Shown here: piece after piece, positions 6,291-51,296 of the stretch
Layout of the letters: each line of letters opens with the position of its first letter
How positions within the stretch are numbered: position 1 is the stretch's first letter
Assembly: GCF_963921235.1 (NCBI RefSeq)
Contig: NC_086097.1
Coordinates: 151,158,001-151,222,000, forward strand
Direction of reading: 5' to 3'
Origin: Mobula hypostoma
Lineage: Eukaryota
Length of the DNA: 64,000 nucleotides
The notes under the pieces: model-generated
What the model saw: the letters and a program-made list of their open reading frames with translations, nothing else
Told to the model about the DNA's origin: nothing
The model's database searches: none
Position numbers and translations under genes: made by a program

Positions 6291-7420
6291 TCCTCATTGC
6301 ACATGGTAATTGCGGATACCAAAGGGGCTGACAGAACGGAGCACTATTTCAACCGTCTGCCTTCCAATTCATTATTACAGAGCGCTGGATGCTGGAAGTA
6401 GCAGTAGCACCAGATATTTTACCTTATATGTCCTATTTATCCAGATGAACAAATCACATACAGTACACTCTAACATTAGTAGGCTAACACCTCCCCCCCC
6501 GCCCGCAAAAATGTGTCACTGAGAATGATTCCTGCAAGTGAGTCAGAAGTAAGCACTATTTGCATTTGCTCTAATGGCAGATGCAAGGTGGAAGCGTCCC
6601 CTGGGAGATATCAGATCATTTTCTTGTACAAGTTATACAACATAGCATGGTAAGTGCATGAGGAATTTTAAACAAGATCCTTTTCCTAAGTATAGTTTGC
6701 AATTTATTCTACTTGGTTATAGAAACCACCTTCTTTTCTTACCATTAGGATAGCTAAGGAATGACAATTGTTCATCTCAATTTCTGAAATCCTCAATATT
6801 CTAGATCAGAGAGAGGATATTAATGGAATGATTGAATTTAGTAATTTATTTACCTGAGGACTGCTTTATAGCCTAACTCAAATGCAAACTTATGCAACAA
6901 CACTGAACAGCTCACTGAATCTGATGCAAAACAGGGTAAGATAAAGTTGTCCTCTTGCCCTGAAAATCCATATCCATGCCTACTGCTTAAAACACAAGGT
7001 ATCGACAGTGAAATGTTGTACTCTGCCTCCAAAATTCATTGCATTTTGCAACAGGAAAATGACAGGAGATTTGTCAATATAAAACATTTATAATCTAATC
7101 ATAACTCAAACTACACCAGAAAGTAGGACACATGAAAACATTAAAATGCAAAAAAGAAAAAAAAATAGGCATTTCTCACAAGGTTTGAAGTGAAATGAAT
7201 TTATGGAAAGTTGAGTGCCCTCTTTCACAGGCTTGTGATGTCTTGCTAAGTTTTCTTCTATGAATTCTGGGAAATCTTTTGTGCTCATGTACTTAAAAGG
7301 AAGCTCTGCCCCTTCATGTTATCGTTCGAGGCCAACTAGGGTCTTTCAGCAGAAACAAAAAGGTGCAGAACTCTATTCAGCCCATTATAGTTTTGCCAAC
7401 TTTTTGAATGGTGACCAGAC

Positions 7421-7661
7421 TGTTGTGTAATTAATATTTCAGTAATATTTGAGTAATATTGTAAAAATATTGTTTGATTAATCATTCTTTGTTGTTTACA
7501 TAATTCATTATGGATTATATGCAGAAGTACATGAATGGCATGTCATTATGCCATCACATTACATGTGAGTGCCCTACTAAAGTGAAAACAAAATGTACAT
7601 ACGATATCTCCAGGCTCCAGTGTTTACCTTTCAATTAGTTTTGGAGTTATAAAACTTAACA
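7421..7661 (+). repeat. 5' LTR of Gypsy copy 1
   Basis: tgttgtgtaattaatatttcagtaatatttgag...ataaaacttaaca, TG..CA ends, direct repeat of 9598-9848. Confidence 0.92.
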
Positions 7662-8020
7662 GTGGTGACAAGTAAGGTTTAAAACGAATCCAAGGTGACT
7701 ATCTAGCTGTTGAATCACAGCACTTTTTTTTTCTTTGCAAGGGGGTGAGAGAGGGACGTTTGAATTTAAAAAAAAAGCAGCACTTTTTTAAAATTTGGAA
7801 GTGCAATGAGACATTCAAGTTTAAGAAAAGGCAGAAAATGGATGAAATTTATGGTTCATAAACAGTGAGTACAAGGTAATAATAATAATAATAATGTAAA
7901 AAAAGCAGAAATAGCTGGCCTTATCAATCAAACACACGTTTGATTGCACAACAGATAACTTGATATTGTATACTGAACAAACTGAGCAGTATTTTGAGGC
8001 AAATGAAATAGCCAATGCAG

Positions 8021-8383
8021 GTGTTGAAAGGACTGGATGGGGTAGATGTGGAGACATTGGTTTCTATGGTGGAGATATCCAGAACTAGAGGGCATAGCCT
8101 CAAAATTGAGGGGTGGCCTTTTAGAACTGAGGGAATTTCTTAGCCAGAGAGTAGTAAATCTGTGGAATGCTCTGTCACCAACTGCAGTGGAGGCCAAGTC
8201 TGTGGGTATATTTAAGGCAGAAGTTGATAATTTCCTGATTGGTCCGAGCATCAAAAGACATGGTGAGAAGGAAGGTGTATGGGGTTGAGTGGAATCTGGG
8301 GTCAGCCAAAATGGAATGATGGAGCAGACCGGGTGGGCTGAATGGCCTAATTCTGCTCCTATGTCTTATGGTCTTATGGTCTA
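8021..8383 (+). mobile_element. CR1 3' fragment inserted in Gypsy gag
   Basis: EFLSQRVVNLWNAL..IFKAEVD; tail tcctatgtcttatggtcttatggt. Confidence 0.92.
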
Positions 8384-9441
8384 AAGCACGTGCCAGTGCT
8401 ACTGAATGTAATAGGTGGGAAAATATGCAGTTTGCTTAGAAGTTTAAACCTCCAAAAAAAAACAACTAAAAGGAATTTTGCTGATATTATGAAAGTAATG
8501 TAGGAACATTTAGAACCAAAATCATTGTTGATTGCAGAACACTTTAAGTTTCAGAAGTGGAGTAAAAAGGAAGGGGAGTTCATTTCAACATGCATGGCTG
8601 AATTGAAGAAAATGTCCAAGCATTGTTAATTCAGTGATGGGGTTAATGATGCACAGGGAGATTGTTTAGTTTGTAGAAACTTACAAGAAAGTATTCAAAA
8701 ACATCTCCTAACAGAAGCACAACTCACATTAATAAGAGCAATTGAAATTGCTGTATCAATGGAAAGAGCAAACAGAGCCACAATTGATTTGCAATCAGGA
8801 ATAAAAGTAAGCATCAACATAACTGCAATATCTAAATAGAAATCTGCCTGCCCCACCAAATTATGACAGGGGCTCACATACACCAGACCAATGCAGGTTT
8901 AAAGGTGAAATTTGCAGAAAATGCAACGAAGTAGGACATACAAAGAGCATGTCAGGCAGACAAAAATACATAGTCTGCACAAGGTAGAGAAAAAGATTTT
9001 TTTAAATATGCAGTTTCAAAAAGAGCACTAGTCCACATGCTGTTGATGAAAGATCTTATAATGATGAGAGTGACACAGGACTAGGTAGTTTTGAGATTTA
9101 TAATATGAAAACTAGCAATAGATAGGATAAAGAGTATCTTTGCAAAACTTTCCAGAGTGGGCTTAGCTGAGGTCTACCTAGAGACGGAGATGAAAGAAGA
9201 ATCCAAAGTATCTCTCACCATAAACACTTACAAAGAGCTTTATTGCTACAATAGGCTTATTTTTGGAGTAGCATCTGCTCCTGCACTCTGGCAGAAAGCC
9301 ATGGACCAGCTGTTGAAAGGCTAGCCAGGCACTTATTGTTACCTGGATAACATCATTGTTTCCAGTCAGGATGACAAAGAACATCTCCAAATCTGGCTAC
9401 AGACTCAAGGTCTCTTCCTCAATCTGTGAGTAATTTTTCTC

Positions 9442-9442
<1 letters not shown>

Positions 9443-9500
<58 letters not shown>
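9443..9500. repeat. (CA)n followed by (TA)n microsatellite
   Basis: Read directly from the sequence. Confidence 0.99.
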
Positions 9501-9597
9501 TTACACACAGTATAACATGACTAGAGAACAATACATTACCTATTTGAGTTGAGATCCATTCCATATTGAGTTGGATTTTATTGCTAGGTGGGGGGAC

Positions 9598-9848
9598 TAT
9601 TGTGTATTTAATATTTCAGTAATATTTGAGCAATATTGTAAATATATTGTTTGATTACACATTCTTTGTTGTTTACATAATTTATTATGGGTTATATGTA
9701 ACAGTATGTGAATGGCATATGTCATTATGCCACCACATCATATGCCAGCACATCACCATCACTAAAATAAAAAAAATGAAATATCACACGTTATCTCCAG
9801 GTTCCCATGTTTTTCTTTTGATTAGTTTTGGTGTTGCAAAACATAAAA
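9598..9848 (+). repeat. 3' LTR of Gypsy copy 1
   Basis: tattgtgtatttaatatttcagtaatatttgag...gttgcaaaacataaaa, preceded by the PPT. Confidence 0.92.
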
Positions 9849-43567: not shown

Positions 43568-44590
43568 TGTGGCCACTGGGAGATCCTGCTTTCTCTGGCG
43601 GACAGAGTGGCCTCCGGGTCCAGCATATAATTCTCCGTAACTTCCGCCACCTCCAACGGGATCCCACCACCAAGCACATCTTTCCCTCCCCCGCCCTTTC
43701 TGCTTTCCACAGGGATCACTCCCTAAGCGACTCCCTTATCCATTCACCACCCCCCCATCCCTTCCCACCAATCTCCCTCCCGGCACTTATCCTTGTAAAC
43801 GGAACAAGTGCTACACATGCCCTTACACTTCCTCCTTCACCATCATTCAGCCCCCAGACAGTCCTTCCAGGTGAGGCGACATTTCACCTGTGAGTCAGCT
43901 GGGGTGATATACTGCGTCCGGTGCTTCCAGTGCGGCCTTCTATATATTGGCGAGACCAGACGCAGACTTGGAATCATTTCACTGAATACCTACGCTCTGT
44001 CCGCCAGAGAAAGCAGGATCTCCCAGTGACCACACATTTTAATTCCACGTCCCATTCCCATTCTGATATGTCCATCCATGGCCTCCTCTACTGCCAAGAT
44101 GAAGCCACACTCAGATTGGAGGAACAACACCTTATATTCCATCTGGGTAGCCTCCAAACTGATGGCATGAACATTGACTTCTCTAATTTCCATTAATGCC
44201 CTTCCTCCCCTTCTTACCCCATCCCTTATTTATTTACTTTCTCCCCTTTCTTTCTCTCTCTTTTTTTCTTCCTCTGTCCCTCTCACTATATCTTCCTCTG
44301 ATGCTCCCCTCCCCCTTTCTTTCTCCTTAGGCATCTCGCCCCATGATCCTCTCCCTTCTCCAGCCTGGTAGCCCTTTGCCAATCAACTTTCCAGCTCTCG
44401 GCTCCATCCCTCCCCGTCCTGTCTTCTCCTATCATTTCAGATCTCCCCCTCCCCCTCCCACTTTCAAATCTTTTACTATCTCTTCTTTCAGTTACTCCTG
44501 ACGAAGGGTCTTGGCCCGAAACGTCGACTGTACCTCTTCCTATAGATGCTGTCTGGCCTGCTGCGTTCACCAGCATTTTGTGTGTGTGGC
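43568..44590 (+). mobile_element. Penelope-like 3' portion (GIY-YIG + terminus) with a short inverted 5' segment
   Basis: RHFTCESAGVIYCVRCFQCGLLYIGETRRRLG and EEQHLIFHLGSLQTDGMNIDF; 43568-43607 is the reverse complement of ~43994-44033. Confidence 0.93.
44492..44530 (+). ncRNA. Minimal hammerhead ribozyme motif in the PLE terminus
   Basis: tactc-CTGACGA-agggtcttggccc-GAAAC-GTC-gactg. Confidence 0.72.
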
Positions 44591-45340
44591 TAACACATTG
44601 CTCTGTTTGTAGCAGGACCAGCCCCCATTTGTAAGACTAACAAGTGTTTTCTATCTCTCTCTGCTAAAACAGTAAAATTGTCTGATTTGCTAGGTACTTC
44701 TTACTCCTCAGTTCTGTGTTTTGAAGATTCTACATCTTTTTTTCCTGTTTCTCTCTCCCCCCCCTCCTCTCTCCCTCTCTCTCTCTTTCTATTATGTTTT
44801 GTAACTCCAAATCATAAAACTAATTGAAGGAAAACAAAGGGTCAGGAATTTGAGTCTTCACTTTTACTTTATGTGAGGTAATTTATTTTATGCAATTTAC
44901 ATATTTTTACATATAACCCATAATGAATTATTTAAACAACAAAGAATGCTTAATCAAACAATACATAATATTACTCAAATATTGCTGAAATATTAAAATA
45001 CAAGACTCCTCCCTGCTTAGCTACAAACTTCAGCTCTATAGAGTGCATTTTAATTCATATACATACACTATATATATGGTATACCTTATAATACAATTTC
45101 TATATAGACATCCAAAGCATAGTAAATTTTAAATGATCCCTTTCAGGCCTAAAGATTTAATTGCCATGGAGGATTTCTTACTCATGTGGGATAATATCTT
45201 TCCTGACAAACTTCACTGCTTGGTAAGTGAAGCTTGTGTCTGTGAAAACAGTATCAGGAACTGGGGCCTCCTTCATGGTGGTTGTAAGAGTTGACTCTGA
45301 GACTGCAGGAGGTAGTTCTGACAGCTCTGTACACTTTTCT

Positions 45341-45958
45341 TCTACTTTTCTCTCTGGATCTTCTATCCTTGTTTCTCCCCCAGTCCCAGCTTCTCTTGCT
45401 TACTTTTATCCACTATTTTTTCTCTCACGTTCCTTCTCTTTTTCACACCTTTCTCTTTTTTGCTCATTTTTTTCTCTGTCTCCACTCTTCTTTTCAACTT
45501 CTTTCTTTTCTTTGCCTTCCTTTTTCTTCTTCTAGTTATTTATTGGTATCTCTGGATTTGCTAATTTCTCAAGCAATCAGGCCTCATCTATCCTCTTTCA
45601 TTTCCATAGTGCCTCTGTCATCATTCTTTTTCTTCAGCCTTTTTCTCTTTCTAGGAGGTACATCCTGATCTTGGAAAGGTGCACTTGGTTCACAAGAATA
45701 TTCTCTTATTAATCCTTCTATTTCTCCCTTTATGATCTGAGCTCTCCGCTTAGTTTCCTTACCAACAACATCATCTGACACATCCTCTGTTCTCATATCT
45801 CCATTGACTACTTTCTTTTTGGCCTTCCATTCATCCAGCTGGGCGTTAGTCTTTGCAACTGTTTTTACAAGCAGCTTTTTGACTCCCACTTGAAGTTCAT
45901 GCGATAACAATGCATGCAGAGTAGATTCTGGTTCTTTATACTCACAAAATTTGAATGC
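45341..45958 (-). pseudogene. RBM25: Processed (intronless) pseudogene fragment of RNA-binding protein 25: end of the RRM through the ER-rich region
   Basis: AFKFCEYKEPESTLHAL..LQVGVKKLLVKTVAKTNAQLDEWKAKKK..ETKRRAQIIKGEIEGLIREYS..PRKRKR..MEMKEDR*GLIA*EISKSRDTNK*LEEEK..RNKDRRSREKSR matches vertebrate RBM25 (AFGFCEYKEPESTLRALRLL..LDEWKAKKK..MEEDKRDLISREISKFRDTHKKLEEEK). Multiple stops, no introns. Confidence 0.93.
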
Positions 45959-46596
45959 CCTCGATTTTTCTAAGCTCCACGTAGCCATCCAGGAGTCTCT
46001 TAAAAGACCCTATTGTTCCGCCTCCACCTCCGCCGCCGGGAGTCCATTCCACGCACTCACCACTCTCTGTGTAAAAACTTACCCCTGCCATCTCCTCTGT
46101 ACCTGCTTCCAAGCACCTTAAAACTATGCCCTCTCGTGCTAGCCATTTCAGCCCTGGGGAAAAGCCTCTGACTATCCACACAATCAATGCCTCTCATCAT
46201 CTTATACACCTCTATCAGGTCACCTCTCATCCTCCGTCGCTCCAAGGAGAAAAGGTCAAGTTCACTCAACCTATTCTCATAAGGCATGCTCCCCAATCCA
46301 GACAACATCCTTGTAAATCTCCTCTGCACCCTTTCTATTGTTTCCACGTCCATCCTGCAGTGAGGCGACCAGAATTGAGCACAGTACTCCAAGTGGGGTC
46401 TGACCAGGGTCCTATATAACTGCAACTTTACCTCTTAGCTCTTAAGCGCAATCCCATGTTTGATGAAGGCCAATGCACTGTACGCCTGCTTAACCACAGA
46501 GTCAACCTGCGCAGCAGCTTTGAGTGTCCTGTGGACTCAGACTCCAAGATCCCTCTGATCCTCCACACTGCCAAGAGTCTTACCATTAATGCTATA
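45957..46596 (-). mobile_element. CR1 fragment (same family as 5102-5929) lacking its 3' UTR and tail
   Basis: LVRPHLEYCAQFWSPH..RGHSFK..LLDGYVELRKIEG then directly RBM25; the tailed counterpart at 5205 continues ..ctatgggtaaccctag. Confidence 0.93.
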
Positions 46597-46598
46597 CG

Positions 46599-49555
46599 TT
46601 AATACAGCCCAAGAGCTGCCAGACATTCCTCACATGGTAACCCTTTCATTCCTGGAATCATTCTCGTGAATCTTTTCTGAACCCTCTCCAATGTCAGTAC
46701 ATCCTCTCTGAAATAAGAAGCCCAAAACCTGTGTGGTCTCACGAGTGCCTTGCAGAGCATTGCATCCTTGCTTTTATACTCTATACCTCTAGAAATGAAT
46801 GCCAACATTGCATTTGCCTTCTTCACCACTGACTCATCCTGGAGGTTAACCTTTAGGGTATCCTGCACAAGGACTCCCAAGTCCCTTTGCATCTCTGCAT
46901 TTTGAATTCTCTCCCCATCCAAATAATAGTCTGCCCGTATATATCTTCCACCGAAGTGCATGACCATACATTTTCCAACATTGTATTTCACTTGCCACTT
47001 CTTTGCCCATTCCCCTAAACTATCTAAGTCTCTCTGCAGGCACTCTGTTTCCTCAAAACTACCTGCTCCTCCACCTATCTTTGTATCATCGGCAAATTTA
47101 GCCACAAATCCATTAATTCCATAGTCCAAATTAGAATCAGAATCAGATTTATTATCACCGGTATGTGACGTGAAGTTTGTTAACTTAGCAGCAGCAGTTT
47201 AATGCAATACATAATCTAGCAGAGAGAAAAATAATAATAAATAAAATAATAATAATAATAAACAAGTAAATCAATTATGTATATTGAATAGATTAAAACA
47301 TGCAAAAACAGAAATACTGTTTATTAAAAAATAGTGAGGTAGTGTCCAAAGATTCAATGTCCATTTAGGAATCAGATGGCGGAGTGGAAGAAGCTGTTCC
47401 TGAATCGCTGAGTGTGTACCTTCAGACTTCTGTATCTCCTACCTGATGGCAACAGTGAGAAAAGGGCATGCCCTGGGTGCTGGAAGTCCTCAATAATGGA
47501 CGCTGCCCTTCTGAGACACCGCTCCCTGAAGATGGCCTAGGTACTTTGTAGGTAAGTACCCAAGATGGAGCTGACATATATCATTGGCATACATTGTAAA
47601 AAGCAGCAGTCCCAACACCAATCGCTGTGGAATTCCACTAACAACTGGAAACTAGTCAGAATAGGATCCCTTTATTCCCACTCCCTGTTTACTGCCGATC
47701 AGCCAATGCTCCACCCATGCTAGTAACTCCCTTGTAATTCCATGGGCTCTTATCTTGCTAAGCAGCCTCATGTACGACACCTTGTCAAAGGCTTTCTGAA
47801 AATCGATGTACACCACATATATTGCATCTCCTTTGTCTACCCTTCTTGTAATTTCCTCAAAGAATTGCAGTAGGTTAGTCAGGCAGGATTTTCCTTTTCG
47901 GAAACCGTGCCGGCTTTGGCCTATTTTGTCATTTGCCTCCAGGTATTCCGTAATCTCATCCCTAACAATTGATTCCAATAACTTCCTACTAACGTCAGGC
48001 TAACAGGTCTATAGTTTCCTTTCTGCTGCCTCCCACCCTTCTCAAATACCAGAGTAACATTTGCAATTTTCCAGTCATCTGGTACAATGCCAGAATCTAT
48101 TGATTCTTGAAAGATCATTGTTAATGCCTCCATAATCTCTCCAGCTACTTCTTTCAGAACCCCAGGGTGCATTCCATCAGGTCCAGGAGATTTATCCACC
48201 CTCAGACCTCAGACCATTAAGCTTCCTGAGCACCTTCTCAGTCGTAAAGTTCACTGCACATACTTCACTTCCCTGACACTCTTGAATGTCCAGTATACTG
48301 CAGAAGTCTTCCACTATGAAGACTAATGTAAAATACGCATTCAGTTCCTCTGCCATCTCTGCATCTCTCATTACAATATCATCAGCATCATTTTCTATTG
48401 GTCCTATATCTACCCTCAACTCTCTTTTACCCTTTATATACTTTAAAAATCTTTTAGTATCTTCTTTGATATCAGTTGCCAGCTTCCTTTCATAATTCAT
48501 CTTTTCCTTCCTAATGACCTTCTTAGTTTCCTTCTGCAAGTTTTTAAAAGCTTTCTATCTTCTCATGAACTTTGGCTTCCTTGTATGCCCTCTCTTTTGC
48601 TTTTACTTTGGCTCTGACTTCACTTGTCAGTCACAGTAGTGTCCTTCTTCCAAACAAAAATTTCTTCTTATTTGTCTTACACTTCACTCATTTTATGCAG
48701 AAACTCCAACCATTGCTGCTCTGCTGTCCTTCCTGCTGGTGTCCCTTTCCAGTCAACCTTGGCCAGTTCCCATCTCATGCCATTGTAATTTCCTTTATCC
48801 ACTGAAATACCAACACATTAGAATTTAGTTTCTCCTTCTCAAATATCGCAGTGAACTCGATTATATTGTGATCACTCTTCCCTAATGGCTCCTTAACCTT
48901 AAGCTCTCTTATCACTTCTGGATCATTGCACAACACCCAATCCAGCACATCCAATCCCCTAGTGGGCTCAACAATGAGCTGTTCTAAAAAGCCATCCCTT
49001 AGACATTCTACAAATTCTGTCCCTTGAGGTCCAGTGCTGACCTGGTTTTCCCAATCCACTTTCATGTTAAAATCCCCAATGATTATCATTGCATTACCCT
49101 TCTGACACGATTTTTCTATCTCTTGCTGTAATTTGTAATCCACATCCAAGCTGCTGTTTGGAAACCTGTTATACAACTGCCATTAGGGTCCTTTTACCCT
49201 TGTCATTTCTTAACTCAACCCATAGGGACTCTACACCTTCCGATCCTATGTTATCACTTTCTAATTATTTAATATTATTTCTTATACACAGGGCCACACC
49301 ACCCCTTCTACCTACTAACCTATCTTTCCGATACACTGTATATCCTTGGATATTCAACTCCGAATGTCAGCCATCCTTCAGCCAATTTTAGAGATGTCCA
49401 CAACGTCATTCTTGCCAATTTGTAGCTGAATTTCAAGATTGTCCATTTTATTTCTTACATTCAAATATAACACTTTCAGTCCAGTATTTGTTGCTTTCTG
49501 CCTTATCTGCACCATGCCTCTATTGCCCCGTAACTCATCTCACTGGCTGTGGAAT
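46599..49555 (-). mobile_element. CR1 ORF2 (endonuclease through RT), 3'-truncated at LGLY
   Basis: TGLKVLYLN, IIGDFNMKVDW, KSDHNII, DKSPGPDGMHP, DFQKAFDKV, KFADDTKIGG. Confidence 0.95.
47131..47575 (-). mobile_element. Rex-type 3' fragment nested in CR1
   Basis: Tail (gattct)n and aataaa at 47131-47152; SIIEDFQHPGHALFSLLPSGRRYRSL..RFRNSFF. Confidence 0.88.
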
Positions 49556-50475
49556 ATTGTGGAATGACTGAAACAGCTGAGCCAGTGTTCAATTCTATTT
49601 TAATTAATTTGCTGTTTACTTTTGGTGTAAGCCATATCACTTGTCTATTGTTAGTTTTTAGATTATAAATCTCAAAGCTACCCAATCCTGCATCACTCTC
49701 ATCATTATCAACAATTTGCAGATTAGTGCTCTTTTTGAAACTGCACTTTGAATTTTTATCCTTTTCTCTTCGCTGTACAGTGTATTTCCCTGCCTGACAT
49801 GCTAATTGTATGTGACCCACTTTGTTGCATTTTCTGCAAGTTTCACCTTCAAACCTGCATTGGTCTGGTGTATGTGAGGCCCTGCCACAACAATAGCACA
49901 AATTGTTCAGCCAGGCCAGCTTCGATTTATAAATTACAATTTTGTTCTTGCTCATTTTCATTCCTGACCGCAACTCAATTGCACCTCTGGCTGCTGTTTC
50001 TATTGATACAGCAATTTCAACTGTTCTTTTCAATATGAGTTGTGTTTCAGTTTGGAGCTGATTTTGAGTGTTTTCTTGTAAGATTCCACAAAGTAAACTA
50101 TCTCTCAATTCATTGTTAAACTCATTACTGAATTGACAATGCTCAAACAACTTCTTCAATTTAGCCACGTACACTGAAATGGACTCTCCTTTTTGATTCC
50201 GTTTATGAAACCTAAAGTGTTCTGCAATCAACAACGGTTTTGGTTTTAAATATTCCTGCATTACTTTCACAATATCAGAAAAGCTCATTTCAGTTGAGCA
50301 GTCAAACTTCAAGCGAACTGTATGTCTTTAAATCCAATGCACTCAGCAAAATTGGCATTTGTTTCTCATTAGCTATTCCATTTATTTTAAAATACTGCAC
50401 AATTCACTAAGTATACAAAATCCAGTAATCTCTTGTGCAATCGATCACGTCAATCTTTTCAATGTAGCAAGCCAT
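49556..50475 (-). pseudogene. Gypsy gag (two CCHC knuckles) and start of aspartic protease, frameshifted near the 5' end
   Basis: ORF 49503-50312: RFHKRNQKGESISVYVAKL, CYCCGRASHTPDQC..CRKCNKVGHIQLAC, ELNTGSAVSVIP (DTG changed to NTG); likely original start gcagaaATGgct at ~50475. Confidence 0.92.
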
Positions 50476-51092
50476 TTCTGCTCTTTTTTGTATTTTCTAA
50501 TTATTATCAACTGGTACTCACAGTTTATGAACCCAAGAATTTGTCCATTTTCTGCCTTTTTAAAGAATGTGTCCACTCTCCCTTCTGAAGTGAAATGCAC
50601 TGCGATTGTTTTTTTTAAACTCAAACATTTCATTGCGCTTTTTTTAAACTGGAACATCAACAGAAGAGGAAATCGTTCCAGGTTTGTTTAAAACTTCCTC
50701 ATCACTGCTGTTAGGTTTTATAACTTCAAAACATAAAACTAATTGGAAGGAAACAAAGGACTCAGGAATGCGAGTCTAACTTCATTTTTACTTTAAGCGA
50801 GGTCCACACGCATGGCAAGATTTATGCATTTAATATATTTTTACATATCTATAACACACATTAAATCATTTAAACAACAAAGAATGCTTAATCAAACAAT
50901 ATATTTACAATATTACTCAAATATTGCCAAAATATTACATCCACAACACTATCTATATCTATCTTCATTAAACTATCAACCAGATGGTTTCACCTGCAGT
51001 TATCACCTGAGCAATCCTGGCCTCACCTGATTGCACTTTTTCCCTTTGTCCTATCCATCCATCCATCTCTTCCGCCTCTACAACTTAAAATT

Positions 51093-51296
51093 TCACAAAA
51101 AATGCTGGTGAACGCAGCAGGCCAGGCAGCATCTGTAGGAAGAGATACAGTCGACGTTTGAGGCTGAGATCTTTCGTTTCGGTCTGAAACGTCGACTGTA
51201 CCTCTTCCTATAGATGCTGCCTGGCCTGCTGCATTTACCGGCATTTTTTGTGTGTGTTGCTTGAATTTCCAGCATCTGCAGATTTCCTCGTGTTTG
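51093..51296. mobile_element. Palindromic (5'-inverted) Penelope terminal insertion with 12-bp TSD
   Basis: Arms ~51094-51168 and ~51177-51252 are inverted copies; flanks caacttaaaatt (51081-51092) and caacttcaaatt (51297-51308). Confidence 0.88.

Follow-up and report, generated by a model that had tools for sequence, protein, structure and literature searches.

How did a spliced piece of the mRNA for the splicing factor RBM25 come to lie inside an LTR retrotransposon? The element is on the minus strand of the window (the whole 64,000-nt stretch of Mobula hypostoma DNA analysed here), and we conclude that it is very probably a defunct copy from a non-autonomous Gypsy subfamily whose RT, RNaseH and integrase core are replaced by the RBM25 piece, likely via two RT template switches. 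The original prediction had already read the locus as capture by template switch, and this part stands; that the locus belongs to a high-copy subfamily, that its true 5' junction has been deleted and that the capture occurred at another place had been missed.

The element starts with a 5' LTR of 240 nt (50709-50948, TG...CA) and finishes with a 3' LTR of 216 nt ending in TA (44790-45005), the two differing at 33 of 216 aligned sites (K2P 0.173). Beside them the plus strand reads ctatc (50949-50953, at the 5' LTR) and ctttc (44785-44789, at the 3' LTR), that is GATAG and GAAAG on the minus strand, in agreement with the 5-bp TSD with one mismatch proposed earlier. From 5' to 3', the interior contains a decayed PBS-like sequence (50692-50708) where other copies have TGG; gag with a zinc knuckle running into the protease start (49555-50475, the start being approximate), with stops and frameshifts and a gag-to-protease frame spanning 50327-49503; several LINE pieces; the spliced RBM25 piece (45336-45958), which covers the end of the RRM, the linker and part of the RE-rich region in five joined parent exons; and the C-terminal tail of pol followed by a 3' untranslated stretch and the polypurine tract (PPT) (45006-45335, PPT at 45018-45006). 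This tail follows the integrase core in pol-bearing copies. The gag region and LTR are 72% alike to the natural copy L144 over 1442 nt. Thus, a spliced RBM25 piece does sit, as claimed, in a Gypsy element with LTRs, PBS, gag, tail and PPT, and it crosses exon joints, but the description of that element as a complete provirus has to be given up, since the window copy lacks RT, RNaseH and the integrase core. Pfam gave nothing significant for the window gag, RBM25 frame or tail, and a PDB search with the RBM25 frame gave 0 matches. SINE-like repeats at 51094-51256 and 44501-44588 flank the element, the former containing an inverted pair (51094-51252, 11 nt apart). A second member of this Gypsy family lies on the plus strand at 7420-9846 of the window; it has both LTRs and gag, a large deletion in its interior and no RBM25.

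The parent RBM25 gene, with its introns, was located by tblastn with gar RBM25 at G000:C1:99,791,418-99,840,645, on the same contig as the window; a PWI search of the genome gave 4 matches, one being the RBM25 exon. Among 215 candidate proteins, 90 of RBM25 type matched the window piece at E<=0.001 (best 62% identity, E 1e-34), and the named ones are mostly RBM25. Positions 45958-45336 of the window correspond to 327-1112 of the model mRNA, with gaps in the RE repeat, and cross exon-exon joints of the parent; the predicted start of the piece (45958) was right, while its end is 45336 rather than 45341. The full cargo opens with the final 10 nt of coding exon 2, continues through an in-frame cassette exon of 48 nt and six further exons, and reaches the start of the seventh; all joins are exact relative to the parent gene. 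It stops in the coding region and has no poly(A), as predicted, and the downstream exons are single-copy.

The intron between coding exons 2 and 3 (G000:C1) holds two alternative in-frame exons, one of 30 nt (L118:8676-8705) and one of 48 nt (L118:3787-3834). GT-AG joints of both the 48-nt cassette and the 30-nt microexon were found in public contigs from two to four organisms, and the joint between microexon and cassette in two organisms. Given that the retrocopies lack the microexon and cannot yield this last joint, the cassette is a real exon. None of the 15 joints listed of 113 connects exon 2 directly to the cassette, those listed running through the microexon, and a simple length screen of the fetched bony-vertebrate homologues revealed no insert like the two alternative exons. 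The captured isoform includes the cassette and lacks the microexon, so that the cargo preserves, like a fossil, an old splice form of RBM25.

The window copy has changed since its insertion. Two LINE pieces, which we take to be CR1, lie between gag and RBM25. The first (46600-49554), in the protease region, keeps an endonuclease (PF14529, E 1e-9) and an RT (PF00078, E 1e-9) and has lost its 3' end; the second (45959-46599) is 5'-truncated and has lost its 3' tail at the RBM25 join. Nested in the first is a short 5'-truncated piece of ~440 nt with a short tandem-repeat tail (47133-47575), presumably Rex1/Babar-like, which is absent from the CR1 at locus L037. The best relatives of the first CR1 piece are 85-87% alike and relatives of the second 85-89%, compared to only 75-84% for the Gypsy and RBM25 parts, which indicates that the LINEs arrived later. 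We infer this order of insertions at the locus: the element would have come first, and the two CR1 pieces and the third LINE piece after it. Most fetched loci have gag-protease upstream and the pol tail and LTR downstream. Other copies also carry ~290 nt more RBM25 at the 5' side than the window copy and retain the ~570 nt that it lacks, which hold the remainder of the protease and the beginning of the RRM. The CR1-RBM25 join of the window, where two letters are shared, is therefore a later deletion and not the capture point. Since this secondary deletion of ~570 nt removed the 5' hybrid junction, the window copy is assigned to the subfamily by its 3' junction, its LTRs and its gag, and the capture event took place elsewhere.

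In those other copies, the 5' junction lies at the 7-nt word TGCCACA, in the protease-RT linker. First, pol-bearing copies continue from it into GCAGTG whereas chimeric copies continue into ACTGTC, the end of RBM25 coding exon 2 followed by the cassette; beyond the word, pol and RBM25 agree in 7 of the 12 following letters (pattern distance 5). The junction is in frame with Gag-protease (D-D-A-T then T-V-S-M). Second, the 3' junction lies at a 9-nt word, GAGAAGAAA, common to RBM25 and the pol tail (45336-45344, with one mismatch in the window copy) and exact in three of the five copies whose sequence runs through the integrase end into the tail; here the reading frame of RBM25 is shifted by one base relative to that of pol as it passes into the tail. 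This is the shared stretch through which RBM25 had been predicted to run into Gypsy, and the two words fit the proposed template-switch transduction of a splicing-factor mRNA. When breaks were paired at random (mRNA against three natural pol copies, 300,000 draws each), at least 7 shared letters were obtained in ~7e-4 of the draws (0.07%) and at least 9 in ~7e-5 (0.007%). A longer 12-nt match to RBM25 in the parent Gypsy was rejected, with only 2 such places in the genome.

We also asked where the loci lead on either side of the junctions. From the protease end (30 loci), 18 continue into pol, 10 into RBM25 and 1 into other DNA, and 1 was unplaced. None of the 34 loci found without the 5' junction in the query extends upstream of it: 26 show the junction and 8 are cut by other DNA. 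Downstream, the pol tail is present in 30 of 39 copies selected by the 5' junction. The distance from junction to tail is ~3.0-3.2 kb in the pol-bearing copies L144, L151 and L154, compared to a cargo of at most 1.07 kb. The cargo is thus a replacement of part of the internal ORF (~3 kb of RT-RNaseH-integrase) and not an interruption.

A few loci are arranged differently. At G000:C2:75092181 and C22:50083573 (L077), the sequence is RBM25-like for three letters past the 5' word and then pol-like, and these may be recombinants of hybrid and native RNA. In L019, a native protease-RT stretch precedes another protease end, which carries the RBM25 junction; this arrangement could be an internal duplication, a recombinant or a nested copy. 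In the cargo-free deletion derivatives L032, L035, L043 and L047, the integrase zinc-finger region is joined to AGAAGAAA before the pol tail, so that AGAAGAAA is a recurrent break site in the family.

The hybrid is abundant. Searching with 24 letters and at most 2 mismatches, we found the 5' hybrid junction at 994 places in the genome and the native junction at 2095 (reversed controls, 0), in line with the check proposed originally, which asked whether several loci share the junction. With 16 of 33 fetched hybrid and 11 of 18 fetched native copies passing this filter, the counts scale to ~2,000 and ~3,400, values that are likely low because the fetched copies are the better preserved ones; the hybrid represents about a third of the family. 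The RBM25 piece itself yielded 2594 first-look candidates in its own genome, the best non-self ones being 74-81% alike among 40 scored. The family fits Gypsy (Ty3) by its two direct LTRs with TG...CA, PBS, PPT and short TSD. Both ends could be located in 11 other chimeric copies: four of these have a 5-bp TSD with 0-1 mismatch, and the remaining seven have no clear one at those ends. In the pol-bearing sister L144, RNaseH (PF17917, E 7e-7) precedes integrase (PF00665, E 1e-8); these are the 2 of its 12 ORF pieces that matched Pfam, RT itself giving no match. Cargo length falls into classes with shared deletions (14 short, 5 medium and 7 other among 26 copies), which points to secondary master copies. 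The short subfamily keeps the RRM and has lost the RE repeat. Other short deletion derivatives, devoid of cargo, spread too.

The gag-protease sequences suggest a single burst. Mean distances are 0.218 between chimeric copies, 0.219 between native copies and 0.221 between the two types, and the tree (FastTree, 48 of 60 sequences, 12 with fewer than 600 aligned letters being dropped) is a star, with internal branches of 0.006 against terminal ones of 0.153 and chimeric copies ungrouped. Only 2 columns distinguish chimeric from native copies, against 0-1 in 10 permutations. Therefore, single origin of the hybrid rests on the shared junctions and not on phylogeny. The 5' junction is bridged by at least 31 letters on both sides in contigs of four organisms from four studies (2, 3, 3 and 2 among the 31 records listed; these are RNA runs by our guess, and introns are covered). 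As RBM25 introns of these organisms differ from the Mobula hypostoma genome by ~0, 1, 5 and 8%, less than the decay of the copies, the burst would predate their split.

Capture and burst were of the same age. LTR pairs have a mean K of 0.227 (SD 0.034; half, 0.113) in the 9 chimeric copies with both LTRs bounded, and of 0.19 and 0.23 in two pol-bearing copies. Between cargo and parent, K is 0.155 (39 copies), and 22 of 611 columns differ from the parent in at least 70% of copies, 19 of them at third positions. Once these columns are excluded, private substitutions amount to 11.4, 11.0 and 11.3% at codon positions 1, 2 and 3, about K 0.12. This value equals half the LTR divergence, as a contemporaneous capture and burst would have it and in line with the age comparison suggested originally. 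For the window copy (cargo K 0.155 on 326 sites, half LTR K 0.086), the cargo is likewise not younger. Equal rates at the three codon positions indicate neutral decay without coding constraint; frameshifting indels occur in 35 of the 39 cargo copies, which as a set lack the open frame under purifying selection of a functional retrogene. The 19 shared third-position differences compare with 15-19 expected from neutral drift at silent sites of the parent. An acceleration of silent sites in RBM25 relative to the copies found no support, as 20 candidate silent changes were counted where 15-19 are expected (P 0.12-0.48).

We propose the following scenario. RBM25 mRNA would have been co-packaged with Gypsy RNA, and minus-strand synthesis would have left the pol tail for RBM25 at GAGAAGAAA, proceeded along it for ~1.07 kb and returned to Gypsy at TGCCACA. 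The hybrid would have retained both LTRs, PBS, gag and PPT, so that pol-bearing sisters could copy it in trans, presumably in the same burst. Later rounds would have shortened the purine-rich cargo into subfamilies, and all copies would then have decayed neutrally. The features of LTR-mediated retrocopies are found together here: an intronless partial mRNA, ORF replacement, two-sided microsimilarity and signs of further non-autonomous cycles.

Was the cargo merely carried, or was it kept and amplified because a Gag-protease-RRM fusion or an RBM25-like RNA helped the element or the host? Such selection, which does not exclude other readings, is unlikely in our view. The in-frame 5' junction, the capture of a whole RRM that the short subfamily kept while shedding the RE repeat, and the share of the hybrid in the family would all suit it. 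However, substitutions are spread evenly across codon positions in mostly frameshifted copies, RE loss can be explained by slippage, the cargo-free derivatives spread as well, and the 22 shared columns match neutral drift in the parent. In a weak search limited to longer proteins, the junction-spanning 97-aa frame of L036 found no match, none of 51 candidates giving a score. We hold as similarly improbable the stronger proposal that the RBM25 RNA-binding domain, in frame with Gag-protease, drove the hybrid to thousands of copies, either as a shield from piRNA silencing or through Gag-RRM packaging, and that the copies now feed small RNAs tuning RBM25; the shield would work because silencing the hybrid would also strike RBM25.

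Template switching in a Gypsy particle must also be weighed against a LINE origin, in which CR1 made a poly(A)-primed RBM25 retrocopy within Gypsy pol and both ends were trimmed before the spread. CR1 adjoins RBM25 in the window copy and is plentiful around the family, and non-mammalian retrocopies have been linked to CR1/Tx1 in the part of a 2026 preprint considered here (10.64898/2026.06.26.734816). Yet, CR1 as the carrier of RBM25 had to be rejected: the other copies have no CR1 at the join and run on into protease, and the CR1 pieces are younger than the element. Moreover, the downstream exon and the PWI exon were not found outside the parent, and a 311-nt stretch with the RBM25 exon downstream of the capture gave 1 candidate, the parent, compared to 2594 for the cargo. 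By this measure the genome has no 3'-anchored retrocopies of the LINE kind, and no poly(A)-type retrocopy of downstream exons, proposed as a refutation, was encountered. There is neither poly(A) nor an inner TSD, and both flanks of the cargo are Gypsy sequences lying far apart in pol. Finally, three events would be required, two of them ending on words shared by Gypsy and RBM25. Together, these data largely refute a LINE origin, to which we give very little credence. Repair or recombination of RBM25 cDNA with genomic or extrachromosomal Gypsy DNA at microhomologies, followed by non-autonomous spread, would be expected to give identical junction words and identical amplification afterwards, but it is highly improbable, as the sense orientation and the retention of every cis signal fit RT switching and the 3' word was reused as the end point of pol deletions (L032, L035, L043 and L047), as expected of an RT slippage site.

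Under RT template switching, the locus provides a clean vertebrate example of a retrotransposon engaged in oncogene-style transduction, in which the parent gene, the pol-bearing sisters and both switch points can be read. The case shows how a single LTR family can account for thousands of "processed pseudogenes" of one gene, a point that bears on gene annotation and on surveys that credit retrocopies to LINEs. The preprint cited above, covering 244 vertebrate genomes, credits retrocopies to non-LTR elements in the part considered; RBM25 is not mentioned in its main text, although its supplements may list it. Among cartilaginous fishes, the leading retrocopy parents that it reports are MIPOL1, SUDS3, SDF2L1, SLU7 and ZNF276. 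The hybrid also offers a natural vertebrate test of the silencing conflict between transposon and host, with captured and uncaptured exons of one essential gene. We found no report of an RBM25-Gypsy family in the openly accessible literature searched.

While the capture mechanism is known, the scale is unusual. In the sections considered here, Tan et al. 2016 (PMC5131818) describe LTR-mediated retrocopies made by RT template switch in flies, mosquito, fish, chicken and mammals, two of which have more than one site. As in the RBM25 hybrid, part of the internal ORF is replaced by a partial mRNA in sense orientation without poly(A), both LTRs are kept and there are signs of further non-autonomous cycles; microsimilarity at the fusion points has a median of 6 bp, compared to 7 and 9 here. 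Maize Bs1 and human HERV-K/FAM8A1, as cited there, likewise have a host mRNA piece within an LTR element, Bs1 with pieces of three genes. According to the portion used of a maize capture study (10.1101/777037), transposons with host exons could cause cross-silencing of the donor or be sheltered themselves; in that system (plants, siRNA), capturing elements show no rise in copy number, unlike the RBM25 hybrid. The Pxyfem retrocopies of PxyMasc in Plutella xylostella, as far as the sections considered describe them (PMC9674220), are also multi-copy partial host cDNAs with LTR-element flanks and microsimilarity at the switch point. However, Pxyfem consists of 11 tandem W-linked copies that yield silencing RNAs, whereas the RBM25 hybrid is dispersed, sense-oriented and about a hundred times more numerous, and its copy number stands roughly a hundredfold above that of the animal cases compared here.
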